From IMG/VR virus record IMGVR_UViG_3300032007_000001: a stretch of DNA of 64,000 nt, one strand, 5' to 3'. The stretch comes from a virus. Taxonomy: Duplodnaviria > Caudoviricetes. Numbering within the stretch: position 1 is the first letter of the stretch; every line of letters begins with the position of its first letter. Position numbers and translations under genes: made by a program. This document shows, piece after piece, positions 2,147-33,757 of this stretch. Below the pieces are notes generated by a model, which saw only the letters and a program-made list of their open reading frames with translations, made no database searches and was not told the origin of the DNA.

Positions 2147-2422
2147 TTATTCCATTTCATATCTCATTTGTTGTTGTTCTTTTGCTTTTTCTATGATTGT
2201 TATTTTTATGATTTGTTTAAGTTCTTCAATTGTTGTATTGCTATCTACTTTTTCTTTTACAGCATCACATAATGCTTCAAACACTCTATCATCATTCAAA
2301 CAATCATGTACATAAAAATAAATGTAATTTTCTTCACAATTGTTTATTATGAAATTTAGTACTTCATCGCAATTGTATGTTATATCTTTTTGCGTTATCG
2401 CTAATCTTCTTAATCTTTTCAT
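2147..2422 (-). CDS. Small hypothetical protein with MKRL N-terminus
   Basis: ORF 2147..2431; RBS GGAGTG places the start at ATG 2422 (MKRLRRLA). Confidence 0.75.
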   Translation of the reverse strand: MKRLRRLAITQKDITYNCDEVLNFIINNCEENYIYFYVHDCLNDDRVFEALCDAVKEKVDSNTTIEELKQIIKITIIEKAKEQQQMRYEME

Positions 2423-2481
2423 TATATTCACTCCAATTACTTATTCTAAATCAAAATATATATATCATTAAGAAAAAAAAT

Positions 2482-2501
2482 AAGAGAGCATTAAGCTCTC
2501 T
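2482..2501 (-). terminator. Hairpin terminator, copy 2
   Basis: Identical AAGAGAGCATTAAGCTCTCT, overlapping the last codons of 2491..3057. Confidence 0.85.
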
Positions 2502-3048
2502 CAATTTTTTCTTCTTTTAACATTTTCAATATAAATTTATCAGGTGGAGTTCCATTTTCTACATTTATTAAATCCAATGACAATCCATTTATCATTACTT
2601 TTGTTTCATCGTATAGATTTGCAAATTTATCTTCAGATATTTCAGCTATTGGTTTCCCAATATATGTAATTTCTATATCATTTTCTGTAAGCTTTTCAGT
2701 CTGTTTATCTTTCGCTTTTTCTTTTATTTTCCACTCAAATTTTTTAGCTAATGCTATTGTAAGTACTTCTCCAGAATGTTTTATATTCTTAAATTGATAA
2801 ACTTCTACTACATAAAATTCTATGTTTTCTCCTTGTCCATAACAACCATAATTAGCATAACTTGGAGGAGTAGAAGATGCTTCATCAATTACATGTACAT
2901 ATTCTTTCGTTATCAATTTCTTTACTATTTCTTTGTTTTCTCTTAATGCATCTGTTACTTCTTGATGAGTGATAGCTTCGCCAGTTTGTATTGATGGTTC
3001 TCCAAATACCATTTTATACATTTCTTCTTTTGATATTAAACGTTTCAC
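2491..3048 (-). CDS. Hypothetical protein, paralog of 23464..23874
   Basis: RBS GAGGTG then GTG at 3048 (MKRLISK); shares PSxQTG..EV, VVE(V/F)(Y/F)QF, KAKD and VxING with the 23.5 kb gene. Confidence 0.8.
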   Translation of the reverse strand: MKRLISKEEMYKMVFGEPSIQTGEAITHQEVTDALRENKEIVKKLITKEYVHVIDEASSTPPSYANYGCYGQGENIEFYVVEVYQFKNIKHSGEVLTIALAKKFEWKIKEKAKDKQTEKLTENDIEITYIGKPIAEISEDKFANLYDETKVMINGLSLDLINVENGTPPDKFILKMLKEEKIERA

Positions 3049-3068
3049 ATCTATCACCTCTTTTTTGT

Positions 3069-3097
3069 ATTATAACATATTTGATAAACAATGTAAA
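3069..3097 (-). promoter_or_regulatory. Sigma70/SigA-like early promoter
   Basis: TTTACA-N17-TATAAT with TG extension. Confidence 0.75.
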
Positions 3098-3101
3098 TAA
3101 A

Positions 3102-3121
3102 AAGAGAGCATTAAGCTCTCT
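3102..3121 (-). terminator. Hairpin terminator, copy 3
   Basis: Identical 20-mer just after the M48 peptidase stop. Confidence 0.85.
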
Positions 3122-3126
3122 CTTTT

Positions 3127-4443
3127 TTATTCTTCTACTTTTTTATATTTGTATTTTGCTCTATTATTTTCATATTGTTCAATGATACCACGCGTATATG
3201 CTAAATTAGCCAATTCAGATTCAGTTTTAATAAATTCATTATATTTATTACCAAGTACATTAAACGGTGTTTCTACCCAATATTTTGCATCTTTCAAAGA
3301 CACATTATAATATGTATCTATTATTTTTGTATGGTCTTTAAAATCATTTCCATGACCATCAAGTATCAATACTACATTGTTAGGATTCCCATCTGTGAAG
3401 ACTTGATCTTCTCTCATAAGTTTAATGTATCTTGTTTTGCATATATCGAAATGAATTGCTGTGGCAATTTGCCCAACAACAAAGAAATTTCTTTCTACTG
3501 CATCAAATTGCCGTTTTGCATCTGTATAAAGGAATGCAGCGCCACATTTTGTATTGCCATTGAATAAAACACCAAAATCATTGTCATACTTAACAAATCC
3601 CAATGACAATTCTTCTATTTTTCTAATAGCTCTTTCTAACCGTTTGGCTGTTTTACTATGTGGATGAAGCCAATTTGTTACTCTATCTTCAATACCACGC
3701 ATTATTTTGTAATTATATGCTCTATATTCTACCATTGCTTCCCCGCCAACACTATATTCAGGCACATACATGGCGTATTCCATAGCTTTCTCATCTGCCT
3801 GTTGTTCTGTCTCAAATCCCATTTGACGACTATTAAAAGCATTGATAAGACTTGAACCAGCAGACAATCCAAGCAAAGCCCATACATTTCCAGCTGGAAT
3901 CATCGATATGATAAGCCTCGTATCCATCTGCCTATCATACTGCCTTAACATATCTTCGTTCTCCCAATGGCCAATTTCATGGCCAATAACAGCCGCCATT
4001 GCTGACATTTGATATATGTTTGATTTTTTCCAAGGCGTTTGTTCATTTTTATTATAAGAAAATGCACCACTTGTCATAGTAGCTAAATGGTCAAACATAC
4101 CTTCATATACGTATATTTGCCCACCACCATAACTTATAGCATTGGCAGAATCATTTTTTGCCATAAGTATGGGTTCTAGTCCGCGCTTTTTCCCTGGCGT
4201 GCCGTACATCCAGAGTTTGTCAGAGTTGAAGAGCATAATCCGCTTCTGGATGTGTTCGAGCACCCAATTGTGCTCGACAGGGTATTCTTTTGCAAAATCT
4301 TGGGCAGCTTGTGTGCCTATCTCTTTTTCTTGTTTTGACGATAACCAATGAGCTTCAGAAACAAATGGTACTGTAAGAGTTGCTGCAGTAGCAATTACCA
4401 CGGTTAAATTTTTAATTGCATTTTTGATTTTCAATGATATCAT
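3127..4443 (-). CDS. Secreted M48-family zinc metallopeptidase
   Basis: Signal peptide ending SEA; NAISYGGGQIYVYEG, AAVIGHEIGH (HExxH), EQQAD, HPHSKTAKR. Confidence 0.85.
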   Translation of the reverse strand: MISLKIKNAIKNLTVVIATAATLTVPFVSEAHWLSSKQEKEIGTQAAQDFAKEYPVEHNWVLEHIQKRIMLFNSDKLWMYGTPGKKRGLEPILMAKNDSANAISYGGGQIYVYEGMFDHLATMTSGAFSYNKNEQTPWKKSNIYQMSAMAAVIGHEIGHWENEDMLRQYDRQMDTRLIISMIPAGNVWALLGLSAGSSLINAFNSRQMGFETEQQADEKAMEYAMYVPEYSVGGEAMVEYRAYNYKIMRGIEDRVTNWLHPHSKTAKRLERAIRKIEELSLGFVKYDNDFGVLFNGNTKCGAAFLYTDAKRQFDAVERNFFVVGQIATAIHFDICKTRYIKLMREDQVFTDGNPNNVVLILDGHGNDFKDHTKIIDTYYNVSLKDAKYWVETPFNVLGNKYNEFIKTESELANLAYTRGIIEQYENNRAKYKYKKVEE

Positions 4444-4460
4444 TTCCTTTCATAGATAAA

Positions 4461-4778
4461 TTATAATTGTTTTTCGCATGCATGATTAGGTTTAACAAAA
4501 TAGAATTTACCATCTTTAAATACTTCTTTTACAACTTCTTTGTAAGATACAATTTGGTCACTATCATAAAAGGATGACCTATTATCTTTGTCTTCCCAAT
4601 AATAAAATTGTACAGAACCAAATCCAATTACTTTTTGAACAAGTTCTTCGGCTTCTTTTTCAGTTTTTGCTCCAACTCTATATCTTCCAGCTGTATTTCT
4701 TTGTCTACTTGGTCTTCTATAATTATCAACTAAGACTATAGCTTGTCTAATTTCTTTCATTAACTTTTTCATCTCCAA
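4461..4778 (-). CDS. Hypothetical protein
   Basis: 105 aa ORF in gene-dense context. Confidence 0.65.
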   Translation of the reverse strand: MEMKKLMKEIRQAIVLVDNYRRPSRQRNTAGRYRVGAKTEKEAEELVQKVIGFGSVQFYYWEDKDNRSSFYDSDQIVSYKEVVKEVFKDGKFYFVKPNHACEKQL

Positions 4779-4817
4779 AAAATAAAAGAGGAATAATTTC
4801 CTCTTTTATTCTATACA

Positions 4818-6749
4818 TTATAAACTGTCTATGTTAGCACTAAAAGCATTTTCTTCTATAAATTCTTTTCTCAATGAAGCGTCTTTTCCCATAAGTATTT
4901 CGAACATTTTTGCAGCTTCTTCGGCATCTTCTATAGTTATTCTTTTTAACGTTCTTGTTTTTGGGTCTAGAGTTGTTTCTTTGATTTCTGTATGGTTCAT
5001 CTCGCCCAAACCCTTAAAACGGTATAAAATATCATTGTCGTTTGGATGCAGTTTTCTATATTTTTCCAATTCATTATCATCTGCTATATAAACAGATGTT
5101 GTATCTTTTTTTACTATTCTATATAATGGTGGCAAAGCTGCATATACATGTCCTTTCCTAACCAATTCTGGCATATAATAGTAAAATAATGTCAATAACA
5201 ATGAACGTATATGAGAACCATCAACATCAGAGTCTGTTAATATTATTATTTTATCATATCTTATATTATTGACATCGAATTTATCTCCAATTCCTCCACC
5301 AATAGCTGCTACTATACCTTTAATAATTTCAGAATTTAATATCTTCCCAATATCAGCTTTTGATACATTTAATATTTTACCACGAAGTGGCAATACGGCT
5401 TGGAATTCTTTATATCTTCCTTGTTTCGTTGTACCAGCAGCTGAATCACCTTCTACTATAAGTAATTCACTTTGTCCTTCGTGGTTAGCACAATCTGCCA
5501 ATTTCCCAGGAAGAGCCATGGAAGTAAGTTGTTTTGCTTTTCTTGAATTTAGTCTCGCTTGTCTTGCTGCAAGTTCTGCTGTTTTTGTTTTGCTTGCTCT
5601 TTCAGCTATTAAGTCAAGTATCTTGGATTGTTTACGGTTTTTGGCTATTGCTTCCAATCCTTTTTTAAGCACACTTTCAACCGCATCTTTCGCAATAGCA
5701 TTGCCAAGTTTTGTTTTTGTTTGTCCTTCAAATTCAGCATTGGTCATTTTGATAGAGATAGTAGCATATAGGCCATCTTCAAAATAACGCATTTCAATAG
5801 GTTCTTTGATTAACTTCTTATTAATAGCATATTCATTCAAGTAATCTTTTAATGCATTCCTAAATCCTTGGACATGCATACCACCTTCATAGGTATTGAT
5901 ACTATTGACGAAAGATTTGATTTTATTGTTTGGTTCAACCTCATTATCATGAATAAAAGAAATTTCTACTAAAATCTTACTCCCGTCTATATTGTCATAC
6001 TTATCGTTGATAAGAATTGGTTCATCATATAAACGTTTTTTCTTTTCAATTAATTGTAACGTATATCCATTAATGCCGTCTTTATAATAAAAAGATTTAT
6101 TAACTTTTCTTTTTTCGTTAATATAATTGATAGTCAATCCAGAATTTAGTGAAGCTAATTCTACTAAACGACCTTCTAATCTATTTGAAGGTTCAAGAGA
6201 AGCTTTATAGATTTGTTTATCTGGGTGATATTTAATGGTTGTACCAGTTTCATCAGTATCTCCAATAACTTCTACTTCAGAAGTTGGAACGCCATAAGCA
6301 AATTCTTGTTTATAAATATGTCCATCTCTTTTTACAATGGCACAAAAATAATCACTGCAAGCATTGGTGCAGCACGAGCCAACGCCGTGAAGGCCCGCGC
6401 TTACCGAATATCCGCTATTTTTATCATGACTATATTTACCACCAGAATGAAGTGTTGTAAGAATACCTGTAAGAGTATCAATAGGCTTACCATCTTTATC
6501 TTTGAAAATTTCTGATGGACCAACGGGAATTCCTCTACCTCTATCAATTACTTCTACTGTAAAATCCTTATATATATGAACATCTATAACATTACCATAA
6601 CCGGCCATAAATTCGTCAATTGAATTATCCAATATTTCATAGACAAGTTGTTCTGTGGAATTTAATTGTCCTAAATACATGGCTGGCATTTGACGTATTG
6701 CATCAACATTTTGAAGAGATTTTATTTGATTAACACCATATTCGCTCAA
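4818..6749 (-). CDS. gyrB: Type IIA topoisomerase / DNA gyrase subunit B
   Basis: EILDNSIDE, DRGRGIP, GLHGVG, EGQTK, EGDSA, PLRGKILN, DSDVDGSHI, RFKGLGEM; AAGGTG RBS with TTG start. Confidence 0.95.
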   Translation of the reverse strand: MSEYGVNQIKSLQNVDAIRQMPAMYLGQLNSTEQLVYEILDNSIDEFMAGYGNVIDVHIYKDFTVEVIDRGRGIPVGPSEIFKDKDGKPIDTLTGILTTLHSGGKYSHDKNSGYSVSAGLHGVGSCCTNACSDYFCAIVKRDGHIYKQEFAYGVPTSEVEVIGDTDETGTTIKYHPDKQIYKASLEPSNRLEGRLVELASLNSGLTINYINEKRKVNKSFYYKDGINGYTLQLIEKKKRLYDEPILINDKYDNIDGSKILVEISFIHDNEVEPNNKIKSFVNSINTYEGGMHVQGFRNALKDYLNEYAINKKLIKEPIEMRYFEDGLYATISIKMTNAEFEGQTKTKLGNAIAKDAVESVLKKGLEAIAKNRKQSKILDLIAERASKTKTAELAARQARLNSRKAKQLTSMALPGKLADCANHEGQSELLIVEGDSAAGTTKQGRYKEFQAVLPLRGKILNVSKADIGKILNSEIIKGIVAAIGGGIGDKFDVNNIRYDKIIILTDSDVDGSHIRSLLLTLFYYYMPELVRKGHVYAALPPLYRIVKKDTTSVYIADDNELEKYRKLHPNDNDILYRFKGLGEMNHTEIKETTLDPKTRTLKRITIEDAEEAAKMFEILMGKDASLRKEFIEENAFSANIDSL

Positions 6750-6855
6750 ATTTTACACCTTCTGTTTTTAAGTTGAATTATTCTATTCTTAAAATTTGTT
6801 TAATAAAAAATTTATTGCTAACAATATCTTAGTAAAAAAATGTGCTTAAATTATT

Positions 6856-7974
6856 TTAATTATGCACAATTATGAAATTTGACTGATTTAGTGCAACGCA
6901 AAGGTTGTTTGCCTTGCATAATTTTATATAATACATTGCTTTCTTTTCTGTATTTTTCATCAATTGAGTAGATACTACTTTGTGATTATAATTTTTTACA
7001 TATTCTAAGAATTTATTAAAATCTTTGAAATACTTTTCTATTTTTGAAAATGGTTGAGCATTGCTATGCAAAAATCTTTTCTTTTCTTCATAATTTTCTT
7101 CAGTGATTTGTTTTCCTTCATCTAATAAAAGTCTTCCTATTTTTGCTATAGCATTTCTTTTTGATGTTTTTCTGTCTTCAATAGAACGTGTTAACATTTT
7201 ATAGTCGCTATTTGACAATTTATTTTCATATTCATAACTAAGATTCAAAAACTCATCAAAAGATTCAAAGTATTTATTGACAAGATTCATATTAATTGGG
7301 AATCTAAGAAATCCATTAATTCTATTTGACTCTAACAAATCTTGGTCTAAAATCAAATATTTTCTTATTAAACATGCAGCAGAACGTAATACATATTCTC
7401 GTTTTTGGTCATTTAAGATATTCTTATCTCTATCTGCATTGTAGCGTATCGTTTTTTCTCTATCATGATAAGCTTTATGTTTATTAGAATCTAACCAAAT
7501 TAAATTAGTTGGATTATTATTTTTATGATTTTCGTCAATGTGATGTACATCAAATCCGCCTATATCAATTTTGGGTTCCATATAATTCATAACCATATGA
7601 TGAGTAAATTTCCATTCATTATTATTAATGTCATAAAACATTTCTCTATCGTAGTTATAGTCTTCTTGATTAATTTGAAAATTCATTGGAAATATACTAT
7701 CAGCTTTTTTTAATAAATTTGCAGAAACGTATCTATTGTCTTTTGTATAAAAAAGATGAAGTGGGTCTGTTTCTATATAATTGCCTGTGTCTAATGTAAT
7801 AATGAAAGTATCATAAATATAAGATTTATTAATTGATGATACTTTATCTGGAAAAACGTTGTTATTTTCATCAATTGAATAGACAAAATAATCTTCTTTT
7901 TTGTTATTGAACATTTCTTCTATAGATTTTATTGTTCCATCTAAAAGTTTTATTAAAGTATTTCCACTCAGCAT
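6856..7974 (-). CDS. Free-standing intein-like protein with HNH homing endonuclease (no exteins)
   Basis: Block A-like MLSGNTLIKLLDG, block B-like GNYIETDPLHLF, HNH DVHHIDENHKNNNPTNL, YNHKVVS, ends IIVHN-stop; RBS GAGGGTG before ATG 7974. Confidence 0.8.
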   Translation of the reverse strand: MLSGNTLIKLLDGTIKSIEEMFNNKKEDYFVYSIDENNNVFPDKVSSINKSYIYDTFIITLDTGNYIETDPLHLFYTKDNRYVSANLLKKADSIFPMNFQINQEDYNYDREMFYDINNNEWKFTHHMVMNYMEPKIDIGGFDVHHIDENHKNNNPTNLIWLDSNKHKAYHDREKTIRYNADRDKNILNDQKREYVLRSAACLIRKYLILDQDLLESNRINGFLRFPINMNLVNKYFESFDEFLNLSYEYENKLSNSDYKMLTRSIEDRKTSKRNAIAKIGRLLLDEGKQITEENYEEKKRFLHSNAQPFSKIEKYFKDFNKFLEYVKNYNHKVVSTQLMKNTEKKAMYYIKLCKANNLCVALNQSNFIIVHN

Positions 7975-8080
7975 ATCTCTCACCCTCTCAGAAGCTGCTT
8001 GTGCACATTATATATACGTTGTTATAGATTTATTTTAAGCATAAAAAAAGAACTGGATAATCCAGTCCTTTTTATTTATT

Positions 8081-8668
8081 TTACATCTCTAAATTATCTT
8101 GTTCTCCTGTTTCAAAATATTTTTGTATCTTTTTTAATCGTTCTAATTTTTTCTTGTCAACCGATTTTTCACTTTTTTCCAATTTTTTTATCTTTTTTAA
8201 GTTTTCTTTTTTAAGATAATCTAACATTTTATTCATGTCAATCCAATTATTAAAATGTATTGTATCATCATAATTTGGCAATTTGTAATCTTTTGAAAAA
8301 ATATTTTTATAATCATCATAATTATTACAACTTTTAATTTCAATATCTTCTACTATCCCATCTGGATTTCCGTCAAAATCAATACTAACAGTAATAATTG
8401 CTGTTACATAAGAATTTAATTCGTTTTCACTTCTAAATACATGTAATTCTGTTACATAAAATAATGGATATTTTATCCCATCTTCGTTTGTCTTTTGATA
8501 TCCAAATTGTCCCCTTAATCCAACATCTTTTCCAGTTGTATCGTTTAATCTAAAGAACAATTTTTCATTAAATAAATTTGAATCTTTACTATTTATCAAC
8601 TTTTTTACTATATTTTCATTTATATTAAATATATTAGGAGATAATCCTTGTTTTATAAGATGTTTCAT
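8081..8668 (-). CDS. Hypothetical protein, paralog of 33266..33757
   Basis: MKHLIKQGLSP, LFNEK, GQFGYQKTNED, PLFYVTELHVFR shared with the 33 kb copy. Confidence 0.85.
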   Translation of the reverse strand: MKHLIKQGLSPNIFNINENIVKKLINSKDSNLFNEKLFFRLNDTTGKDVGLRGQFGYQKTNEDGIKYPLFYVTELHVFRSENELNSYVTAIITVSIDFDGNPDGIVEDIEIKSCNNYDDYKNIFSKDYKLPNYDDTIHFNNWIDMNKMLDYLKKENLKKIKKLEKSEKSVDKKKLERLKKIQKYFETGEQDNLEM

Positions 8669-8681
8669 TTTTTGTTCACCA

Positions 8682-9104
8682 TTAAAAACTACTTATTTTT
8701 ACATTTAGTTTTTTACTTGCTTTCTTGAAAAAAATATCTCTGGGTTGTAACGGCATATATCTTACAAACGCATCTTCATCAATATTTTTTGAATATACTA
8801 ATATTTCCAAGTTGTTTGTATCTTTAACTACAAAACTCATACCCGGTGTTTCTCTTCTTACTGTTTTAACCAATAATTTGACATTGGCATCCAATTTAAT
8901 CCAATTTTTGTAAAAAATTTTATGCCCACCAATATCTATCATAACCCAAGGCATACCAATACCAACAGCAAAATCGTTATCACCGTCATAATTGGGTACG
9001 AGTTCAATATTTCCTTTTATATTATCAATAATATACTTAAACATTTTTATCGTTTCTCTTTCGAATTCTTCTTGCCAAAATTTTTCTTTATTTGTTCTAT
9101 TCAT
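8682..9104 (-). CDS. Hypothetical protein, paralog of 33763..34203
   Basis: NDF..G..W..I.I.GH.I, PG..F and (V/I)YS.N shared; AAGGAGG RBS. Confidence 0.8.
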   Translation of the reverse strand: MNRTNKEKFWQEEFERETIKMFKYIIDNIKGNIELVPNYDGDNDFAVGIGMPWVMIDIGGHKIFYKNWIKLDANVKLLVKTVRRETPGMSFVVKDTNNLEILVYSKNIDEDAFVRYMPLQPRDIFFKKASKKLNVKISSF

Positions 9105-11247: not shown

Positions 11248-11610
11248 ATGGAATTACCTGCATGGCTGCAAATTGCTTTTATGATATTATCCTCTTGCCT
11301 TTCTTTAGTTGTAGCTTATCTTGGAACAAAAATCAAGAAACTGCAGGAGAGAAAAGAAGAGGAAGCTAAGCAAACTGCAAAAGAAGAAGAAGCTTTTAAG
11401 ACTGGCATCAGGTCGATGCTAAGAGACAGATTAATTTACATCTGCTATAAATGTAAAGAAAAGAACTGCATTACAGTTGACGAACTTGAAAACCTTGCTG
11501 ATATCTTTAAGTCATACGATGATTTAGAAGGCAACGTTGCAGTAACTAAACTTTACAAAGAAACAATTGCATTACCATTAGACGCTAATGAAAATGTGAA
11601 ATATATTTAA
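11248..11610 (+). CDS. Holin-like membrane protein, paralog 1
   Basis: Single N-terminal TM; LRDRL...ELENL..IF.SY.DL.GN phage family often annotated as holin; GGAGG RBS. Confidence 0.6.
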   Translation: MELPAWLQIAFMILSSCLSLVVAYLGTKIKKLQERKEEEAKQTAKEEEAFKTGIRSMLRDRLIYICYKCKEKNCITVDELENLADIFKSYDDLEGNVAVTKLYKETIALPLDANENVKYI

Positions 11611-11824: not shown

Positions 11825-12241
11825 ATGGAATTACCAGCATGGACGCAAGTTGTTTTTATGATTATTTCTTCTATTCTTTCAATTATTGTCGCATATCTTG
11901 GACGTAAAATTACTCAAGAACAAGAAAGACGTGATAAGGCTGAAGAACAAATAACTAAAGAAGAATTAGCTTTGAAAACTGGTATTCGTGCAATTCTTAG
12001 AGACCGTTTACTATATATATGTCTGATTTGCGAAAGAAGAGGAGCAATAACAGTTGAAGAACTTGAAAATCTTTCTGACATTTTTAGGTCTTATGAAGAT
12101 TTAGGTGGTAATGGAGCTGCTAAAAAAATTTATCAAGATACAGTCGAATTGCCATTAACTACACATGCAAAGGATGCAGAACATGATGTTGGAATAAGTG
12201 ACGAAACGTTACAACACATAAAAAAAATGAAGCTATCATAA
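11825..12241 (+). CDS. Holin-like membrane protein, paralog 2
   Basis: MELPAW..., LRDRL, ELENL, SYEDLGGNG; clear tandem duplicate. Confidence 0.6.
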   Translation: MELPAWTQVVFMIISSILSIIVAYLGRKITQEQERRDKAEEQITKEELALKTGIRAILRDRLLYICLICERRGAITVEELENLSDIFRSYEDLGGNGAAKKIYQDTVELPLTTHAKDAEHDVGISDETLQHIKKMKLS

Positions 12242-14508: not shown

Positions 14509-14568
14509 TTCTTACTTTTTAATAAAATATATTTCAACAAAGAAAAAAAACGAAGAAAAACGGGCACA

Positions 14569-14790
14569 CTACCCGTTTTTCTTACTTTTTAAGAACCATT
14601 GCGTTTCTCCTGTCATTTCATTGACAAAATAGTCGATCTTGAAATCCTTTTTACTTTCCAACATTTTCATTTTTAATGTGGCGTCAAAATCATTTTTAGC
14701 TTCTACAAATTTTAGTTTCGCCTCTTGAGATGGACTAATAGGATTTCTTCCAAATACTCTTAGCTTAATCATAACTCTCCCCTTCTTCAA
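14569..14790 (-). CDS. Small hypothetical protein
   Basis: GGGGAG RBS suggests start at MIKLRV. Confidence 0.55.
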   Translation of the reverse strand: MKKGRVMIKLRVFGRNPISPSQEAKLKFVEAKNDFDATLKMKMLESKKDFKIDYFVNEMTGETQWFLKSKKNG

Positions 14791-14851
14791 AATTTGTTTT
14801 AGTAGTAAAAACTCTTTTAAGTCGGGATTTAATCTCGGAAAATAATGTTCA

Positions 14852-15487
14852 TTAAAACATTTGTTTGCTTTTTAATAAAGTTTTTCTTTCGTTTATAGTT
14901 TTTACTACCTTTTCGTACATATCTTGAAGTTCTATCGCTGGCATAGTTGTAAAAGAGTCATCCAATTTCTTATAGAATTCTTGCATCCATGCGAATTCTT
15001 TATCAAATAAGTATGGATATTGCTCTTTTATTAAAAATACATAATCGCGGCAGTATGAAGAACAGTAAATATTAATTTCAGGAATCGTTTTAATATTATT
15101 GTTTTGATTATTTTCCAAATTGTTTATTAATTGATTCAATTCATTAATTTTTTCGTCTTCTCCATATGATATTCCGTACCTAATTCTAAATAAATCAAAC
15201 GTCTGTTCGTAATCATCATGTTTTTCCATGTTATGAACAAACGTGACTATATTTCCAGACGCGGAACATCCAAAGCAATAATATGTTAAATGTGTTTGTA
15301 TTTCATTATTATTTTTCTTAAATCCTTTAGGATAAACAGTAAACGATGGTGTTCGTTCATTGTGAAATGGACATTTGCAACGATATATGCCATTAATTGG
15401 CTTTAATTGAATATATTCGTTCATGATTAATAAATCATCGCAATGGTCCGCAATATATTCAGTTATTTCCTTCGTTTCCTTGTCCAT
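14852..15487 (-). CDS. CHC2 zinc-finger protein (primase N-terminal domain only)
   Basis: CPFHNERTPSF...YYCFGC..SG; no TOPRIM domain in 211 aa. Confidence 0.85.
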   Translation of the reverse strand: MDKETKEITEYIADHCDDLLIMNEYIQLKPINGIYRCKCPFHNERTPSFTVYPKGFKKNNNEIQTHLTYYCFGCSASGNIVTFVHNMEKHDDYEQTFDLFRIRYGISYGEDEKINELNQLINNLENNQNNNIKTIPEINIYCSSYCRDYVFLIKEQYPYLFDKEFAWMQEFYKKLDDSFTTMPAIELQDMYEKVVKTINERKTLLKSKQMF

Positions 15488-18960: not shown

Positions 18961-19269
18961 TTACTCTTCTTCTCTCATATCTGTTATTGAACGCACATAT
19001 TCTTGATATTCATCTTCATATCTTTGCATTTCGCTTTTCATCCATCTTTTTACATCAATTGCAGTTCCTTCACAAAGCGTATTATCATTTTCATCTGTTA
19101 TAAAGTAATAATTGTCCCCTTTTCTTTTAGTCAATTTGAATGGTCTAAACTTATCGTTTTGCCAATCCTTATAATTTAAGGAACTATTTAAGACTTCAAT
19201 GTATCTATCCCATAAATTAAAAACACTATTATTGACTCTATTAGTAACATCTTCACCTAAACGTTTCAT
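18961..19269 (-). CDS. Hypothetical protein with MKRL N-terminus
   Basis: RBS AAGGTGA places the start at ATG 19269 (MKRLGEDV). Confidence 0.75.
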   Translation of the reverse strand: MKRLGEDVTNRVNNSVFNLWDRYIEVLNSSLNYKDWQNDKFRPFKLTKRKGDNYYFITDENDNTLCEGTAIDVKRWMKSEMQRYEDEYQEYVRSITDMREEE

Positions 19270-19695: not shown

Positions 19696-21561
19696 TCATA
19701 CATTTACCACAAACTCTCTAATATCCCATTCTTCTTCTGTCTCATACATTTTTCGTCTTACTTTTGTTTGTCTTTTAAACATTGGAGTTTCATCATCAAA
19801 ATCAAATACAAAAGCTTTTGTTTTTCCAGGGTATAAACGTAATACTCTGCCAATTCTCTGGAAAGCTCTTGTAGAAGATTTTCCAGCGCCAGCTAAAATT
19901 AATGTATCTAAATTTGGTAAATCTAATCCTTCATCTGCAATTACGCTTGCAATCAATATTTTACAAACTCCTTGTTTTACACCTTCTATAACAGCCTGTC
20001 TTTGTTTTGTTGAATCTTTACCAGAAAGAAATTCTATATTAGACACTTCCAATGTATCTTCCAATCCAGATTTTGGGTCTATAAATGTAACATTTTGTTT
20101 TGTTTCACCAATAATATGCAATAATTTATCTCTTAAAAATTCTCCATGTCTTACTAATTTTACAAGAATCAAAATCGTACGATTTCTTTTATATAATTGA
20201 TAAGCTATTTTGCATACCATTTTATTTCTTGGAGTATTGTCTACTATCGCTTTTTCATATAAATCTTGATAATTTTTTCCTTTGAAAAAGCCATGTACAG
20301 GAACAAAATAAATCGTAGGCTTTACTAAATATCCTAATTGAATTAATTTAGAAGCATTAATATCATTTTCGTGATTTCTACGATTTAATATTGCTTCTAT
20401 AAGCATATCATCTCCGCTATCTCTCCACGGTGTCGCAGAAACGCCAATTCTATAATATGCATCTTTACACATAATGGAAGTTTTTAAGCATGTATCTGCA
20501 GCACAATGATGACAATTGCTTACCAAAATTCCATTAGCAAAGAAATTATGGTTCTTTTCTACAGTGATATCATATACATATTCTATTCTTGAAGCCACAT
20601 TGACAGCATTTAAAACAATACCATGAATAATATCCTTTCCATCAAACAAAATCACTTCTGTGTCCTTCTGAAGGTGTTCTGTGCGGATATATTTATTGTC
20701 TGAATAAGAAAATATTTTGTGATTATGCGTACACATTAAATTGTACGTTTTTTTATTAAAGTCTTTTATAGAAATAGAGTAAATTTTTCTTTCACCAATT
20801 GGTTGTTCCATATAATTGATGATTTTATTTTCTTCCAATGAACCGGTAGAAACATTATATGTCATTACATTGGCGTTGATTCTATTTCTTACTATTTCTC
20901 CAATTTTCATATTCGACCCATCTGACATTAGAACGTTTACATTTGCAGGTAAACATTCATCAATCATTATCATTTTGGCTTGCTTACATAAATCTTCATC
21001 AGCCGATTGTATTGACATAACAGTAATATCTTGTGGGTCATATATACCATCGCCAATAAAGCCAATCTTTCTGCCGAGAAATTTTTCAAATTCTGATTTT
21101 AATTGATTGCATAATGTAATTTTATCAGCAAAAACGCAGACTGGAGATACTTTATATTTTGCTATCAATCCAGCCATGATAAAAGTTTTCCCTGCACCAG
21201 TTGCAGCTTGAATCGTTTCTCTTTCGTTACATCTATCTATAATTTCTTGCTGATATGGACGTACTACCAATGGAGTATCTCCAATTTTTTCTACCAATTC
21301 ATAATCAGCATTTTGTTCTGGTTTTACTCTTAAATCTTTTATTTTATATGGAATATTACAATCGTTGCAAAAATCTATAACGTTATGTATGAGTCCTGCA
21401 TATGTTTTTAACGTTTTCTTATTAAAAACATGACGATATCTGACTTCACGCATACCAAAAACTTCTACTTTGAAGCTTAATTTTGCCCAAAGATTTGAAG
21501 CTTGGTCTTTTGTCAAGCCAATTACTTTTACATATACATTGTCTAATTCTAATGTTACCAC
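19696..21561 (-). CDS. SF2 DExH helicase (UvsW/XPB-like) containing a mini-intein
   Basis: RPYQ, ATGAGKT, IIDE|CHH, SATP, EGLDLP, QRIGRVLR. Confidence 0.9.
   Translation of the reverse strand: MVTLELDNVYVKVIGLTKDQASNLWAKLSFKVEVFGMREVRYRHVFNKKTLKTYAGLIHNVIDFCNDCNIPYKIKDLRVKPEQNADYELVEKIGDTPLVVRPYQQEIIDRCNERETIQAATGAGKTFIMAGLIAKYKVSPVCVFADKITLCNQLKSEFEKFLGRKIGFIGDGIYDPQDITVMSIQSADEDLCKQAKMIMIDECLPANVNVLMSDGSNMKIGEIVRNRINANVMTYNVSTGSLEENKIINYMEQPIGERKIYSISIKDFNKKTYNLMCTHNHKIFSYSDNKYIRTEHLQKDTEVILFDGKDIIHGIVLNAVNVASRIEYVYDITVEKNHNFFANGILVSNCHHCAADTCLKTSIMCKDAYYRIGVSATPWRDSGDDMLIEAILNRRNHENDINASKLIQLGYLVKPTIYFVPVHGFFKGKNYQDLYEKAIVDNTPRNKMVCKIAYQLYKRNRTILILVKLVRHGEFLRDKLLHIIGETKQNVTFIDPKSGLEDTLEVSNIEFLSGKDSTKQRQAVIEGVKQGVCKILIASVIADEGLDLPNLDTLILAGAGKSSTRAFQRIGRVLRLYPGKTKAFVFDFDDETPMFKRQTKVRRKMYETEEEWDIREFVVNV
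20515..20955 (-). mobile_element. Mini-intein (147 aa, no endonuclease) in helicase motif II
   Basis: CLPANVNVLMSDG ... CTHNH ... VYDITVEKNHNFFANGILVSN followed by Cys+1. Confidence 0.9.
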
Positions 21562-22491: not shown

Positions 22492-22788
22492 TCAAAAATA
22501 CTTTTTAGCTTCTTCAAAGAAATCATTAAATGCTTTTTGAAGTTGTTCAATTTCTTCTACATCTTGTACCATCATGGAAAATCCATTTTTAGTTGGTCCA
22601 TCATATGTATCGTTTTTGATAAACTGACGCATGTTAAGATAACGATTACCATTATTTTTGCTTTCTTGCAATGCGAAATCAATTCTCATTTCTGGATTTT
22701 GTTGAAGAGTTTTTGTTACAATTTTGTTAATGGATTGTGCGAACTTCTCAGGATTTTTCTTAGCCAATTTTAATGTCCCCTTTCTCAA
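22492..22788 (-). CDS. PC4/YdbC-like ssDNA-binding protein
   Basis: NRYLNMRQFIKNDTYDGPTKNGFSM matches the PC4 core pattern; real start probably TTG 22764. Confidence 0.7.
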   Translation of the reverse strand: MRKGTLKLAKKNPEKFAQSINKIVTKTLQQNPEMRIDFALQESKNNGNRYLNMRQFIKNDTYDGPTKNGFSMMVQDVEEIEQLQKAFNDFFEEAKKYF

Positions 22789-22960
22789 CTGGTTCCAATG
22801 CTGATTCTTTTATGTTTGTATAGCTTAATTTACCATTATCAATGAAATAAGTATTATCATCAAAAATTTGTATGATTTTATATGTGCTATCATCGTATGG
22901 GTGTTTTTTGAATTTCACACTATCATTTATTCTAAACAAATGTTTTCCTAAACGTTTCAT
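22760..22960 (-). CDS. Small beta-rich hypothetical protein with MKRL N-terminus
   Basis: GGTGA RBS before ATG 22960 (MKRLGKHLFRINDSVKF). Confidence 0.65.
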   Translation of the reverse strand: MKRLGKHLFRINDSVKFKKHPYDDSTYKIIQIFDDNTYFIDNGKLSYTNIKESALEPVEKGDIKIG

Positions 22961-23463: not shown

Positions 23464-23874
23464 TTAAATTTTTTCTATAAGAAATCCATTGATTACAACA
23501 TCGGATGTATTAAAATTTTTATTTTGACCATCAAATATTCTACCACCAGAAAATCTATTATCTTTTGCTTTAGTGAAAATATTATCTTCCACTTCTTTTG
23601 CAAAAATAACTGTTTTATACCCATTTCCAAGTTGTTTTGAATTAAATTGAAAAAATTCAACAACACAAAAATGTTCTATACCATTTTGGTCAAAATAATG
23701 TCCTTTCATTCCTTGCATCGCATAATCTTCTTTTGGATGAGGTGGAGGTCCTTTCTTAAAATCATCTAAGCTAAAACCGTTTTGATTATTTTTTATAAAT
23801 TCTTTTACTTCATCAAATGAAATTATATTTCCAGTTTGGTCGCTTGGAAAAGCTATTTTTTTTAATCTTTTCAA
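23464..23874 (-). CDS. Hypothetical protein, paralog of 2491..3048
   Basis: GGTGA RBS before TTG 23874 (MKRLKKIAFPSDQTG). Confidence 0.75.
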   Translation of the reverse strand: MKRLKKIAFPSDQTGNIISFDEVKEFIKNNQNGFSLDDFKKGPPPHPKEDYAMQGMKGHYFDQNGIEHFCVVEFFQFNSKQLGNGYKTVIFAKEVEDNIFTKAKDNRFSGGRIFDGQNKNFNTSDVVINGFLIEKI

Positions 23875-29500: not shown

Positions 29501-30178
29501 TGTTGCTTCGCAAAACACGAGATTTACATTCGGTTCTACACCAAATTGACCATTGGCTTTTGCGAAAACAGAAGAATAATGTAATATATCATTATATCCT
29601 AAGCCTTCTGGATATTCATTAAAATTACATTCATTCTTTACTCTTACATCCCAACACATTGTTATGCGACGAGATGTTTCATCATTTACTCTATCATCGA
29701 ATGCTAATTGACCTAAACTCTCACCATCAACATATCCATTTTTATTTGTATCTTCTATACCTTTTTTGCTTTCAAACCAAACTTCAAGATACACCAAACT
29801 ATCATACGTTGAATCTTCAGTAGGATTACCAAGGTCAATCAATATATAATTATCAATTTTATTGTATGTAAAATTACCACTAGCAACCAATGGATAACCA
29901 TTTATGACGCATTGAAACGGTGCTATTGCAATTTGATTTTTTAATATCAAACCGTTAGCACTCGGGCGGAAAATCATTTTTTCGCCTTTGAAATTTGGGT
30001 CAACCAAATATGTAAATCCACTTGGAATTGCTTCTCTAAGCATTGATGTTCTAGCATTTTCTTGAATCTGTTGCAATTCATTCAGTTCGACTTCAAGTAG
30101 TGGGCGGTCATGACCGAATTTAACAGACGTATAGCTAGATTTTTCATTATAATTGGAGTGTCTATCAAAATGTTCCAA
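26549..30178 (-). CDS. Large virion baseplate/tail-fibre protein with LamG-like domain
   Basis: N-terminal RPLLEVELNELQ, VYLEVWF, ETSRR, ALPMFRIRR, VIDLRK shared with 34984..36972; central GTIDFY..W..YHI..SW..YIN..LKIG..IDN LamG-like pattern. Confidence 0.65.
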   Translation of the reverse strand: MEHFDRHSNYNEKSSYTSVKFGHDRPLLEVELNELQQIQENARTSMLREAIPSGFTYLVDPNFKGEKMIFRPSANGLILKNQIAIAPFQCVINGYPLVASGNFTYNKIDNYILIDLGNPTEDSTYDSLVYLEVWFESKKGIEDTNKNGYVDGESLGQLAFDDRVNDETSRRITMCWDVRVKNECNFNEYPEGLGYNDILHYSSVFAKANGQFGVEPNVNLVFCEATNELFLEESFNHDKNLYVAGRKDFEIKSTSLFGKYVFALPMFRIRRRNLSKYNFENYNGSDSYNDMLVNNDSSKNGDIKNYFRTDRLAYDVISENDVIDLRKTVSLSGFDYEVLCDNTFKDLINNNLTTNGTPIQRRVQIGNRLFNFGEIGSCKLMIPFDGTINQLIPTYDASRPLVYDAAIKFDNSLNHLGAIIDDNKELSYNVTDLLTEEKGTIDFYMKSNWNGCDDYSQVMLSLVNESNSPIIKLQKLKNKLILSQYNYEISNDNYIENKAIVNLSDKLIISGRYYHIRISWCNEPSPVVGQIYVYINTKLVAQADYSRCYLKAARLKIGDSMNQYSPGFIIDNFVAFNNNYELIMGSGTGYTYVVNKFWPMIPKDFSNYNTLLMPGFNSIVNNYSDNAFTQKDTIFYINKNEEENLATFEINLNEDKYVESITEIYDMDGNKLSNITYGRVEGVGTNHVIFYPYNQDLERVIIQCVVCLSPGCGGIDMPTKINGAAIVKYDMDADTVANYEYPLYIEQEVSFNDINSKYPRKIPYLKPRKVFGNEDEAYDFTNEYRTHSQCYARLIYYNVSGNGTNQYEIPIEVYGYKVLGIVGSHTNRIESITKTPSPIVGEEDLNFKVYLKYPLNIGDTITFELACAGYSFDYDLKSKTIMTNMHKCKLLEFVANGVDNVYTLPCMNMTQDGGIHGGVLKSVYTFINNELNNEAKIVGQEETVLVYHNGEIFYDEHGMPTNKKIYNTMPVRITDDSFGSPFITIIFDEESKPRKDVTIQLPIMVSYQMTNEDLLSIWYEHVPYQGVMTVNNKKVTRVGDWKYFMTTLSTGKPNNEAIQTNIINGLPGGMVYSYKIDNADIILKNVTNDMTTTLNNEDINKKIVFMNDFMLKNNEETCSLSNEYILTKNSNYFQDGNISFENVDFNLYFNDTTTPIKKYIGAYCPVADEKGEIFMFVIGNINTNTSVITKLDPQYGDLYRIKGRPSIKK

Positions 30179-30270
30179 AACACATTACCTCCTTTTATAA
30201 AAATAAACTAATTGTATTTTATTTAATTTATAGAAGAACGAAATAAATAAAATAATTTCGGGGTGTAAAT

Positions 30271-30609
30271 ATGAAACATTTGATTAAAAAAGCAAATTAT
30301 GATATAGTTGATAAAATTCTTGAATATGCAAAAAAACGTAATTTAACGATTCAAGAAAATGAAGATAACTATATTATATGTGGTTCAATCGCACTAACAT
30401 TTATGGGAATTGAAGTAATAAATACAGATATGGAATCAATTGATTCCAATGATTTTTCTATTTCAATTATTATAGAAAAAAATCAAACTGATGTAAAAAA
30501 AGGTTTATTAAAATTAAAAAATGGTAAATTTAATTTTGAAAAAGAAATAGCATTGGTTTATATTTTAAGATTACTAAGTACTAAAGACATAGAATCAATT
30601 GGATTGTGA
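30271..30609 (+). CDS. Hypothetical protein with MKHLIKKA N-terminus
   Basis: GGGGTG RBS. Confidence 0.75.
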   Translation: MKHLIKKANYDIVDKILEYAKKRNLTIQENEDNYIICGSIALTFMGIEVINTDMESIDSNDFSISIIIEKNQTDVKKGLLKLKNGKFNFEKEIALVYILRLLSTKDIESIGL

Positions 30610-30618
30610 GGTAAAAAT

Positions 30619-30942
30619 ATGGAAATTTATTATGGGATTACAGACTTTAATGATGTTAAAATAACTAAACTTATTTTAGACGAATGTACAAATGGAATAT
30701 ATTACATTATAAAAACAGAAAATGATGAACCATTACAAAAATATAATTTGTGGAAAAAAGAGTTAATTTCAGCAGAAAATTTTGATAAGTTGTTTACAGA
30801 TACACATTGTATTTTTTCTCATGATAAAAAATTAATAAAAATGAGATTAACTGATGAAATTAACAAACAACTTGAAGAATTAGATAAAAAAACAAAACAC
30901 TTAAAAACATTGAAGAAAAAAGTAAAAGATGCTACAAAATAG
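30619..30942 (+). CDS. Hypothetical protein (intact paralog of the IS-disrupted gene)
   Basis: MEIYYGITDF..., HCIFS..KKLIK; terminator at 30924-30954. Confidence 0.8.
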   Translation: MEIYYGITDFNDVKITKLILDECTNGIYYIIKTENDEPLQKYNLWKKELISAENFDKLFTDTHCIFSHDKKLIKMRLTDEINKQLEELDKKTKHLKTLKKKVKDATK

Positions 30943-30955
30943 TAGCATCTTTTTA

Positions 30956-30984
30956 TTTACATATCATATGTTTTATGTTAAAAT
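30956..30984 (+). promoter_or_regulatory. Sigma70-like early promoter
   Basis: TTTACA-N17-TAAAAT. Confidence 0.7.
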
Positions 30985-31127
30985 AAAAAAGAGGTGATAA
31001 TATGAAAATATATTATGGAATAACTGATTTTCATAAAGTAATTATAAAAGAACTTATAATTGAACCTTATAAAAATTAAAAATATAAAATTATAATATAA
31101 TATATTATAAAAATAAGAGGTGATAAA

Positions 31128-31727
31128 ATGTTAGCAAAAGATGTGTTAAGAGTATTAGGTATTACAAGAGCTACTTTAACAAAATATGTAAAAACTGGAA
31201 TCATAAAAGTAAATGTTTTGCCTAATAAAAGATACGACTATAATGAAGAAGATGTTTATAAATTTTTAAATAAAGATATAAAAAGAAAAACAATTATATA
31301 TGCTAGAGTATCTACTCAAAAACAAAAAAATGATTTAGAAAATCAAATTAATTTACTCAAACAATTTTGTTTTTCAAATGGTTATACGATTTCTGGAATT
31401 TATCAGGATATAGCTAGTGGAATATCTTTTGAAAAAAGAAAAGATTTTTTTAATCTTTTAGATGAAGTTATAAGCGGAAAAGTAGAAAGAATAGTAATTA
31501 CTTATAAAGATAGACTTTCAAGAATTGGATTTGATTTATTTCATCATTTATTCCAAAAATATAATTGCGAAATAATAGTAATGAGTGAAATTGGAAATAA
31601 TAAATTAGATTCTCAAGAAATATTTGAAGAAATTGTTAATCTTTTGCGTTGTTATTCTATGAAATTATATTCCAATAGAAGATGCTTAAATAAAATTAAA
31701 GAAGCAATAGAAGATGATAACGAATGA
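31128..31727 (+). CDS. tnpA: IS607 TnpA serine recombinase
   Basis: N-terminal MerR-like HTH, IYARVST, DLENQ, DIASG, YKDRLSRIGF. Confidence 0.95.
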   Translation: MLAKDVLRVLGITRATLTKYVKTGIIKVNVLPNKRYDYNEEDVYKFLNKDIKRKTIIYARVSTQKQKNDLENQINLLKQFCFSNGYTISGIYQDIASGISFEKRKDFFNLLDEVISGKVERIVITYKDRLSRIGFDLFHHLFQKYNCEIIVMSEIGNNKLDSQEIFEEIVNLLRCYSMKLYSNRRCLNKIKEAIEDDNE

Positions 31728-32947
31728 TAAAAGTAGAAAAACATATAATAAAACAATCTAATAAACATTTTAAATTAATAAAACATTTTTGTTGGTTATC
31801 TAAAAATCTTTATAATCATGCTAATTTTTTGATACGAGAAGAATTTATAAAAAATGGTAAGTGGTTAAGATATCAAGAATTGGATAAGATATTAAAAAAC
31901 GACTCAGAATATCCAGATTATAAAAATATGCCAACAAGCCAATCTGCTCAACAAATATTAAGATTATTAGATAAAAATTGGATTTCATTTTTTAAGTCTA
32001 TAAAAGATTGGAAACTACATAAAGATAAGTATTTAGGAAGACCAAAGCTTCCAAAATATAAAAAGAAAAATGGATTGTGTTGTTTGACAATAACAAATCA
32101 AGAATGTAGAATAAAAGATAAAAAAATAACATTTCATAAATCTTTTAACGGTTTTTATCTTTTCCCTCAATTTATAAATAAACAATATGAAAAATTTAGA
32201 CAAGTAAGATTTATACCAGACGGAGTAAATATAATAACTGAAATTATATATGAAACTAAAGATGTTAATTTTAAGAAAGATAATAAAAAATATGCTTCTA
32301 TAGATATTGGAGTAGATAATTTAGCAACATTAACAACGAATGTAAATAATATGCCAATTATAATTAATGGAAAACCATTAAAGTCAATTAATCAATACTA
32401 TAATAAAAAATTAGCATATGTGAAAAAAGTATGCAAACAAATGAATAATAAACATTCTTCTAAAAGAATACAAAAATTAACTAACAAAAGAAATTGGAAA
32501 ACAAATGATTATATGCACAAAGCGAGTAGAAAAATAGTAAATGAATGTATAAAAAATGATATAACTACATTAGTAATTGGGCATAATAAAGAATGGAAAA
32601 ATAAATGTAAATTGTCAAAAAAAGTAAATCAGAATTTTATTATGATTCCATTTAATAATCTTATTCAAAAAATACAGTACAAAGCAAAAGAAGAAGGTAT
32701 AACGGTCATCTTAACTGAAGAAAGTTATACGAGCGGTACATCTTTTTTGGATAATGAATTACCTATTAAAGAGAATTATGATAAAAAAAGAAGAATAAAA
32801 AGAGGATTATTTAAGTCTAACAAAAATAAATTGATTAATGCAGATGTAAATGCTTCTTTTCAAATTCTTAAGAAAGTAGTTCCAAATGCTTATAGCTATG
32901 GAATAGAGGATGTTGTGGTACATCCATTTGTAGTAAATGTAGCTTAA
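31724..32947 (+). CDS. tnpB: TnpB RNA-guided endonuclease
   Basis: RuvC motifs SIDIGVDN, TEESYTS, NADVNAS; ATGA overlap with tnpA. Confidence 0.95.
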   Translation: MIKVEKHIIKQSNKHFKLIKHFCWLSKNLYNHANFLIREEFIKNGKWLRYQELDKILKNDSEYPDYKNMPTSQSAQQILRLLDKNWISFFKSIKDWKLHKDKYLGRPKLPKYKKKNGLCCLTITNQECRIKDKKITFHKSFNGFYLFPQFINKQYEKFRQVRFIPDGVNIITEIIYETKDVNFKKDNKKYASIDIGVDNLATLTTNVNNMPIIINGKPLKSINQYYNKKLAYVKKVCKQMNNKHSSKRIQKLTNKRNWKTNDYMHKASRKIVNECIKNDITTLVIGHNKEWKNKCKLSKKVNQNFIMIPFNNLIQKIQYKAKEEGITVILTEESYTSGTSFLDNELPIKENYDKKRRIKRGLFKSNKNKLINADVNASFQILKKVVPNAYSYGIEDVVVHPFVVNVA

Positions 32948-33038
32948 TGCTACATTGAACAACAAAAGAAAATATAATTTTTAATTTCTTAAATTAATTT
33001 TAATATTTTCTATATCATAAAAATAATATATACAAAAT
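32880..33038 (+). ncRNA. Putative TnpB omega/reRNA scaffold plus flanking guide
   Basis: Hairpins GGATG/CATCC and AATGTAGC/GCTACATT over the tnpB 3' end and right end; extent inferred from known TnpB biology. Confidence 0.45.
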
Positions 33039-33265
33039 TATAAAATCAACCGATGATACACCATTAAACTAATGCGGAATTCTTAACAAGCGTGTATCAG
33101 AAGAAGAATTTGATAAATTTTATGCTGACGTACATTGCATTTTTTCAAAAAACAAAAAACTTATTAAAGATAAACTAAAAGAAGCATTTGATAAAGAAAT
33201 AGATAAATTAGAAAAACAATTAAAAGAATTAAAGAAAGTAAAAGAGACTATCAAATGATAGTCTC

Positions 33266-33757
33266 TTATTTTTTATTTTGTTCTTCTAATTTTTCTTCTA
33301 ATGCATTTTTTACTTCTTCGAATTTTTTCCATCCACCGTATTGAACAACATTTCCATTTTCTAAAACCAGCGTTGTTGACAAAATATCCTTAAAATCAAG
33401 AAATCTATCATAATCTCTTATTTGAATATCAAAATTTTTGGAATTAACATTTCCATTATTATCAATTTCAACTGTTAAAATTGCAACGCAAAATTTTTTA
33501 CCTTCTTTTTCTATTTTTCTAAACGTATGAATTTCTGTTAAATAGATTAGTGGATTAAAAATAACGTCATCATTTGTTTTTTGATATCCAAATTCTCCAG
33601 CAACGCCAACGTTATCAACCTTGTCAAAATTGTTTATTCTTTTCCATTCTTTTTCATTAAATAAATATGGTGCCCTCGTTTTTATTAATCTTTCTACAGT
33701 ATCATTGGATAAAATAGAAATTGATGGCGATAAGGCTTTTTTAATTAAATGTGTCAT
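33266..33757 (-). CDS. Hypothetical protein, paralog of 8081..8668
   Basis: MTHLIKKALSP, LFNEK, GEFGYQKTNDD, PLIYLTEIHTFR. Confidence 0.85.
   Translation of the reverse strand: MTHLIKKALSPSISILSNDTVERLIKTRAPYLFNEKEWKRINNFDKVDNVGVAGEFGYQKTNDDVIFNPLIYLTEIHTFRKIEKEGKKFCVAILTVEIDNNGNVNSKNFDIQIRDYDRFLDFKDILSTTLVLENGNVVQYGGWKKFEEVKNALEEKLEEQNKK

Follow-up and report, generated by a model that had tools for sequence, protein, structure and literature searches.

A short basic N-terminal tag on unrelated proteins of phage-G-like megaphages, with head docking as a candidate function

The DNA analysed here is a stretch of 64,000 nucleotides (the window), corresponding to bases 161438-225437 of the virus record IMGVR_UViG_3300032007_000001 (the study phage), a contig of 504,279 bp with 29.7% G+C; positions called genome positions refer to the whole contig. 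Eight small proteins encoded in the window begin with the same short peptide, M-[KT]-[RH]-L and a few further residues, which is called the tag below. Our own gene caller predicted about 698 genes over 91% of the genome. The study phage is distantly related to Bacillus phage G: a 1513-residue tail protein was 34% identical to gp185 of that phage, the capsid protein was 76% identical, and the terminase and the portal protein were 56-57% identical. The left third of the window is occupied by replication genes (gyrase B, an HNH/intein piece, NAD ligase, a DnaB-type helicase, an intein-bearing helicase, and an M48 peptidase), and its right half by baseplate and tail genes. The eight tagged genes are listed here by window position.

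2147..2422, minus strand: 91 residues, starting MKRLRRLA (ATG start); no Pfam or PHROG family
2491..3048, minus strand: 185 residues, GTG start read as M-KRLISKE; strong Shine-Dalgarno site (GAGGTGAT) 4 nucleotides upstream
8081..8668, minus strand: 195 residues, starting MKHLIKQG; paralog of 33266-33757 (E 8e-25)
18961..19269, minus strand: 102 residues, starting MKRLGEDV, with only the MKRL half of the tag
22760..22960, minus strand: 66 residues, starting MKRLGKHL; start set by orthology with a phage G protein
23464..23874, minus strand: 136 residues, TTG start read as M-KRLKKIA; weak paralog of 2491-3048
30271..30609, plus strand: 112 residues, starting MKHLIKKA; the only protein of the genome that also ends in the Gly-Leu tail described below
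33266..33757, minus strand: 163 residues, starting MTHLIKKA; paralog of 8081-8668

All eight N-termini reported in an earlier, sequence-only reading of this DNA were found at these positions, each with a Shine-Dalgarno-like site upstream. Seven of the eight starts were chosen independently by our gene caller. For the eighth, the caller had picked a TTG at 22939, and the start at 22960 is backed by the phage G ortholog, which begins MKRLIKKSEQLF and aligns from there. The grouping of the proteins into two paralog pairs and singletons was likewise borne out: 2491-3048 was a weak paralog of 23464-23874 (E 1e-4) and also of genome 408261-408734, and apart from the two pairs the bodies shared nothing in BLASTP once the tag was removed. 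None of the replication, baseplate, or tail genes of the window was tagged, which agrees with the claim that its recognisable enzymes and tail proteins start otherwise. The gene at 33266-33757 is the last but one at the downstream end of the baseplate/tail block.

Pfam and PHROG searches with the eight window proteins gave nothing significant, megablast of one of the genes against GenBank phages gave no match, and a homolog search for 8081-8668 found a single relative only. An AlphaFold2 model of 8081-8668 comprised disordered residues 1-13, a beta-sheet body, and C-terminal helices; in the models of two tagged proteins, the first 13-16 residues were unstructured and then a confident fold followed. 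Foldseek searches of the PDB with the models of 8081-8668 and a gp17-like protein gave no significant match. The best rows for 8081-8668, which were non-significant (E about 0.1), were all PARP WGR (DNA-break-binding) domains.

Subsequently, the frequency of the tag was examined across the whole genome. When all N-termini were compared with shuffled controls, a check that had been proposed along with the tag, M[KT][RH]L was far above chance: it started 41 of the 698 predicted proteins (MKRL 25, MKHL 14, and MTHL 2), whereas shuffling the columns 2000 times gave an expectation of 2.4 and never more than 8, and the frequency behind internal Met residues predicted 1.0 (Poisson p = 9e-51). MKRL and MKHL were by far the two commonest N-terminal 4-mers of the study phage. 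Lys was the commonest second residue of its proteins generally (20%), and [RH]L followed in 39 of the 143 proteins starting with MK (27%). The enrichment was 20-40 fold above chance in both the study phage and phage G. The information content was high at residues 2-4, moderate at residues 5-8 (I/K/R, K, K/A/Q, and A/S), and at background from residue 9; therefore, the length of the tag was set at eight residues, with the consensus M-K-[R/H]-L-[I/K/R]-K-x-[A/S] and the core [K/S]-R-L-x-K-x-A. R/H3 and L4 were invariant in 41 sequences of the study phage and 22 of phage G. A scan with a position weight matrix found 43 tags directly after Met and 19 more that were offset by 2-8 residues, including ten of the form MNIIxxRLxKxA (internal-site rate, 3.8e-4 per site).

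Selection acts on the tag peptide and not on the DNA. The codons of the tag varied (Arg, AGA 16, CGT 8, and CGA 1; His, CAT or CAC; Leu, TTA, TTG, CTT, or CTA), and the ribosome-binding site was the only element common to the regions upstream of the tagged genes. These results exclude a nucleotide-level signal such as a promoter, a translation enhancer, or a recombination site. A gene-calling artefact was also ruled out, since the GenBank starts of phage G agreed in two regions and independent callers agreed on metagenomic homologs. Nor did the tagged N-termini have the features of a Sec, Tat, or lipoprotein signal peptide: residues 9-16 were polar and variable, no hydrophobic core of at least 10 residues was present, and the bodies were acidic and soluble-looking. 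As judged from the sequence, the tag as a helix would carry K2, R3, K6, and K7 on the side opposite M1, L4, I5, and A8. The exact coding pattern of MKHLIKKA was found in IMG/VR only as chance singletons in small unrelated phages. We found no paper containing the tag strings, and the tag is not mentioned in the phage G multi-omics and jumbo-phage papers that were consulted; as far as the literature searched shows, it has not been described previously.

The bodies behind the tag are unrelated. BLASTP of 41 tag-stripped bodies gave only five small clusters. In phage G, for which the same caller predicted 659 genes, MKRL was again the top N-terminal 4-mer (20, with two additional MTRL), 26 proteins were tagged according to the position weight matrix, about 8 further ones were offset-tagged, and the consensus was MKRL[ILVM]KK[AS]. 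The phage G carriers included gp334 (nucleoside deoxyribosyltransferase-like; NUDIX hydrolase in GenBank), gp345 (SLOG), and gp346 (ferritin-like), and further Pfam matches among them were ParB_N, GNAT, WYL, and PARP-like domains. These domains began 8-100 residues past the protein start. The small clusters and the unrelated folds rule out a single diverged paralog family and, together with the varied codons, confirm the proposal of a portable N-terminal tag.

A PARP-like family of phage G illustrates this portability. Its nine members share a Y-H-G-T-S motif and match the PARP catalytic domain weakly, so that they are likely to be ADP-ribosyltransferase-like; six carried M[KT]RL and one carried MRRL, whereas the two untagged members began directly at the catalytic domain. 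Therefore, the tag is an add-on placed ahead of the domain. Members of this family lie at the following positions.

Phage G, YHGT family members: 35181-36314, 70929-71849, 81748-82587, 163172-163849, 178671-179204, 245994-246467, 401815-402885, and 420403-420834

The counterpart in the study phage is only an open reading frame of 39 residues starting MKRLKKSNVEIPKILYHAT (genome 477983-478102), which may be a remnant.

The tagged bodies had a further property in common. They were more acidic than size-matched untagged proteins in the study phage (net charge per residue, -0.077 vs -0.007; p = 9e-11), and the same was observed in phage G (-0.096 vs -0.020; p = 4e-9).

The tag was also found in other relatives. 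Four IMG/VR contigs related through the head protease were tagged, and in the three taken in full the tag was present in 6 of 83, 5 + 5 of 199, and 2 of 152 genes. Among reciprocal best hits, it was kept where the bodies were only 26-35% identical, and its distance from Met varied from 0 to 8 residues. The gp9 family was tagged in five of five genomes (MKRLRKKVAS, MTRLKKIKQ, MKRLGSKP, MSRLKRN, and MGMKRLIKKAS), as was the gp17 family (MKRLRKKTAS, MKRLIKKSNH, MKRLKKTAAP, MKSRLRKIANH, and MIKRLIKKATN), and in the gp20 family the tag was clear in three genomes and weak in one. Among 51 metagenomic gp17 homologs, most of the full-length ones started with a recognisable variant of the tag; short gp18-like paralogs were untagged. 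Overall, the tag was retained by orthologs in the five genomes and by about 40 metagenomic homologs.

The tagged proteins that were best conserved over the five genomes are encoded in the head module, close to the genes for the portal and the prohead protease. In phage G, the stretch from the terminase (gp1) to the capsid gene (gp27) contains the tagged gp9, gp13, and gp17 together with gp20, whose tag is offset; the portal gene comes right after gp13, and gp17 and gp20 sit on either side of the head maturation protease gp19. This protease had no Pfam match and was assigned only to PHROG 18299. The study phage keeps this arrangement, as shown by the following genes.

Genome 359217-360036: three consecutive tagged genes
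Genome 369547-370140: tagged gene adjoining the terminase gene
Genome 404726-405100: tagged gene overlapping the start of the protease gene

Another tagged gene of the study phage adjoins the portal gene, and another is upstream of the decoration and capsid genes. Taken together, these observations show that the tag is lineage-wide, protein-level, portable, conserved, and linked to head-module genes.

We also examined a more distant phage. LR745208 is an uncultured phage of 485 kb with 55% G+C, the capsid protein of which is 41% identical; in BLAST, it matched no more than 39 proteins of phage G and 27 of the study phage, among which were those of the capsid, portal, head protease, and baseplate. 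No MKRL tags were found in LR745208. Nine of its proteins, however, start with M(T)TLRSKLIRLAH-NP-LR-LLPLLKEA, an N-terminal module of roughly 30 residues, and lie in part at these positions.

LR745208.1, tagged proteins: 14562-15269, 20283-20732, 226068-226730, 274678-275658, 351543-352536, 389893-390948, 398171-398575, and 433231-433653

Eight of the nine bodies had no BLAST similarity elsewhere in that genome and one had a single untagged paralog; none of the nine had a significant Pfam match, and their acidity was no different from that of the rest of the proteome. One of the genes lies between the protease/scaffold and the decoration/capsid genes, in the same neighbourhood as gp20 of phage G. 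The core of the module, S-K-L-I-R-L-A, resembles variants of the phage G lineage such as S-R-L-R-K-I-A. If the two tags are related, the protein that reads them would be among the few that these phages share, of which the recognisable ones are mostly virion parts. In Tunturiibacter phage Tunturi_5 (capsid protein 38% identical), none of the 14 proteins around the capsid gene was tagged.

The tagged genes are not scattered evenly in the genome of the study phage: 23 adjoined another tagged gene as against 5 expected, and ten lie in a row at genome 302979-306512 as two convergent five-gene blocks. The phage also has a specific strong promoter of the sigma-A type, with the consensus AAACTATTTACA-spacer-TGGTATAAT, at about 60-110 genome sites, for example upstream of window 3048. 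Operons behind this promoter contained 4 of 62 tagged genes vs 58 of 108 genes for proteins with a Gly-Leu tail (Fisher p = 7e-4). This difference appeared only with the consensus of the phage itself, and generic sigma-A promoter scoring showed none; a putative second promoter motif, TAGAATA, proved not to be specific. The sigma-A-type promoters presumably represent the early class; if so, the tagged proteins would be made later, during head assembly.

The Gly-Leu tail is a C-terminal tag that about 110 small proteins of the study phage carry, all of a fast-evolving kind, and it was absent from phage G. Like the N-terminal tag, it is a terminal tag on small proteins of the same genome, but it is carried by other genes in other regions, half of them in sigma-A-type operons. 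The two sets were nearly disjoint (1 protein shared vs 6.5 expected), which rules out that they form one class.

The tag was then compared with known systems. It had been likened to the address label of T4 internal proteins, and this comparison held in part: a short N-terminal peptide shared by unrelated bodies is present, whereas the T4 cleavage motif ending in Glu is not. In T4, a capsid targeting sequence (CTS), reportedly described by Mullaney and Black in 1996, is found on the internal proteins IPI, IPII, IPIII, and Alt. Like the tag, the CTS is about 10 residues long, N-terminal, and attached to unrelated fast-evolving proteins, and the carriers of both include ADP-ribosyltransferase-like enzymes. 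Moreover, the interval from the portal gene to the head-protease gene holds small tagged genes here and genes 67 and 68 in T4. The two sequences, however, are unrelated (MKTYQEFIAE vs the basic KRLIKKA); the CTS ends in the gp21 motif Leu/Ile-x-Glu, whereas the tag ends in K-x-A/S with no conserved Glu. The study lineage has an HK97-type head and a protease of a different family from T4 gp21, and its carriers, which have acidic bodies and would be putative head cargo, number about 45-60 as against four or five in T4.

A second precedent concerns docking. The RIIK motif of the 80alpha scaffolding protein and of SaPI1 CpmB docks in a cleft of the HK97-fold capsid protein, the R and the first I being essential (PMC5644958). 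Like the tag, it is a short terminal run of Arg, aliphatic residue, and Lys (R-I-I-K vs R-L-I-K) from a Firmicutes phage with an HK97-fold capsid, and it shows that such a short peptide suffices for docking into a capsid protein. Unlike the tag, it is C-terminal, comes after an amphipathic helix, and is confined to two scaffolding proteins, whereas the tag is N-terminal and occurs on dozens of non-scaffold proteins, and binding of the tag to the capsid protein is putative. The inner-body and ejected head proteins of phiKZ-like jumbo phages have long, family-specific propeptides cut at S/A/G-x-Glu, and encapsulin cargo-loading peptides are mostly C-terminal and Gly/Ser-rich. Both systems load many proteins into an HK97-fold shell by means of short terminal peptides or propeptides, and neither resembles the tag.

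The best-supported explanation, to which we assign a probability of roughly 40%, is that the tag is a head-docking signal, that is, a capsid-targeting or processing signal. It is favoured indirectly by the location of the best-conserved carriers in the head module, by the related module of LR745208 with one carrier encoded between the protease and capsid genes, by the scarcity of tagged genes in the sigma-A-type operons, by the unstructured tag in the AlphaFold2 models, and by the RIIK precedent. We infer docking, encapsidation, cleavage, and ejection of the tagged proteins in the following manner. The tag would sit on a disordered stalk ahead of folded, mostly acidic bodies of unrelated origin and would be read by one common partner that is conserved throughout the phage G lineage. 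This partner would most likely be a component of the prohead during its assembly, namely the scaffold, the portal, or the HK97-type capsid protein (its inner face or N-arm). The tagged proteins would be made in the middle or late phase and docked inside the head, where the head protease or the neighbouring M16B peptidase may trim them, and some of them would leave the head along with the DNA. A broader version can be put forward only tentatively: an ancient N-terminal signal of all phage-G-like megaphages, related to the 30-residue module of LR745208, might pack 25-60 different acidic proteins, including ADP-ribosyltransferase-like, nucleotide-processing, and DNA-binding enzymes, for delivery with the DNA.

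Several observations weigh against head docking. No Glu-type or other recognisable protease motif was seen after the tag. The capsid, portal, and putative scaffold proteins contained no tag-like motif, contrary to the suggestion that head and scaffold proteins might carry similar K.A sites, and none was found at the C-termini of head-module proteins. The T4 internal proteins are basic whereas the tagged bodies are acidic, and we know of no precedent for sixty cargo species. The tagged genes are spread through replication and other modules beyond the head module, and the gp20-like gene of the study phage is untagged. The closest ortholog of 8081-8668, found in ENA contigs, starts MGYLIKQG and has thus lost K2 and H3. 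Finally, the tagged gp346 of phage G has been reported in "particle proteomics" (PMC12484599), but this detection means little because the same list of 104 particle proteins includes many replication enzymes.

We considered other functions for the tag. It could be a presequence for the M16B (mitochondrial processing peptidase (MPP) beta-like) peptidase of the phage, or for another protease, and be cut off to activate or release the protein, with no link to encapsidation. MPP, an M16B enzyme, cleaves basic N-terminal presequences with a critical Arg, and the tag is likewise a basic N-terminal extension with Arg in a lineage that keeps an MPP-beta-like enzyme. An active-looking M16B zinc peptidase with an intact HxxEH adjoins the large terminase gene in both the study phage (genome 366358-367584, minus strand) and phage G (gp2), and an M16 match was obtained in all four related IMG/VR fragments. 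Among solved structures, this peptidase is closest to a Bacillus "processing protease" and to mitochondrial processing peptidase beta. In addition, two tagged genes of the window immediately follow an M48 peptidase gene (see below). Mitochondrial presequences, however, have 15-50 residues and no fixed sequence and serve membrane import, and LR745208 has the related tag but no M16 match. The tag also fits the R-2/R-3 cleavage rules poorly because position 5 is hydrophobic in only half of the cases. We regard such a presequence as an unlikely explanation; it would be compatible with head docking if the peptidase acts inside proheads. In both the study phage and phage G, the M16B gene is followed by a gene for a protein with sigma-70 region 4.

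Targeting of the tagged proteins to another site of the cell (the membrane, the phage DNA, or a replication/assembly compartment) through a two-turn basic amphipathic helix is also improbable. The helical-wheel layout follows from the consensus, many carriers are among replication genes, and the ParB_N, ferritin/Dps-like, and WYL carriers of phage G act on DNA, to which the weak WGR-like fold rows of 8081-8668 may be added. A peptide of eight residues, however, is short for binding a membrane, the constancy of the R/H-L pair points to a specific pocket and not to bulk charge, and the conserved carriers are head-module genes.

We would place little weight on a third possibility, namely that the tag is an N-degron or unfolding signal by which a Clp-type unfoldase, either a ClpX-like ATPase of the phage or that of the host, times the removal of the proteins. 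Known N-terminal motifs for ClpX are of the type Met-basic-hydrophobic. Phage G encodes both ClpX and ClpP (PMC12484599), and the study phage encodes a ClpX-like AAA_2 protein but no ClpP. The tag tolerates 2-8 extra residues ahead of it, and one would not expect conserved proteins of the head module to be destroyed.

It is very unlikely that the tag has no common reader and that its shared start arose by descent from one ancestor, by recombination where genes begin, or because an AT-rich genome favours starts that are translated efficiently: Lys is indeed a frequent second residue, and the clustering of the tagged genes and the presence of some paralog groups look like local duplication, but the codons are varied and synonymous with no DNA conservation, unrelated Pfam folds are tagged, the tag is kept over deep divergence with variable offset, 27% of MK starts continue into [RH]L, and the acidity is common to bodies across folds.

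Other features of the window were as follows.

3127-4434, minus strand: M48 family (HtpX/Ste24-like) peptidase gene, followed immediately in the same orientation by two tagged genes
6856-7974, minus strand: open reading frame of 372 residues (HNH and intein) with an intein splicing-domain match, just downstream of gyrase B
11248-11610 and 11825-12241, both plus strand: tandem paralogs starting MELPAW-Q--FM, probably small membrane proteins, kept in the ENA relative contigs
19696-21561, minus strand: superfamily 2 helicase of 621 residues with an intein inside
31128-32947, plus strand: transposase (PHROG 506, 407 residues) and a partner gene of 199 residues, in a low-G+C island separating the replication and tail blocks; copies of the transposase that are 49% identical occur in phage G and one IMG/VR relative

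No role is known for two thirds of the phage G genes or for almost any small gene of the uncultivated relatives of this phage. By grouping 4-9% of the proteome as a single functional class, the tag offers a first handle on these orphan genes. Since phage G can be cultivated, the question of what the tag does is answerable by existing methods, in part from data already collected. If the tag is a signal for a protease or an unfoldase, these phages would run a protein-processing system of their own with dozens of clients. If head loading is true, the tag would show what a giant capsid contains besides DNA and provide a large set of candidate first-strike effectors, as well as a simple tool of eight residues with which foreign proteins could be loaded into very large phage particles; with 25-60 proteins loaded, the cargo would be an order of magnitude more diverse than that of T4.

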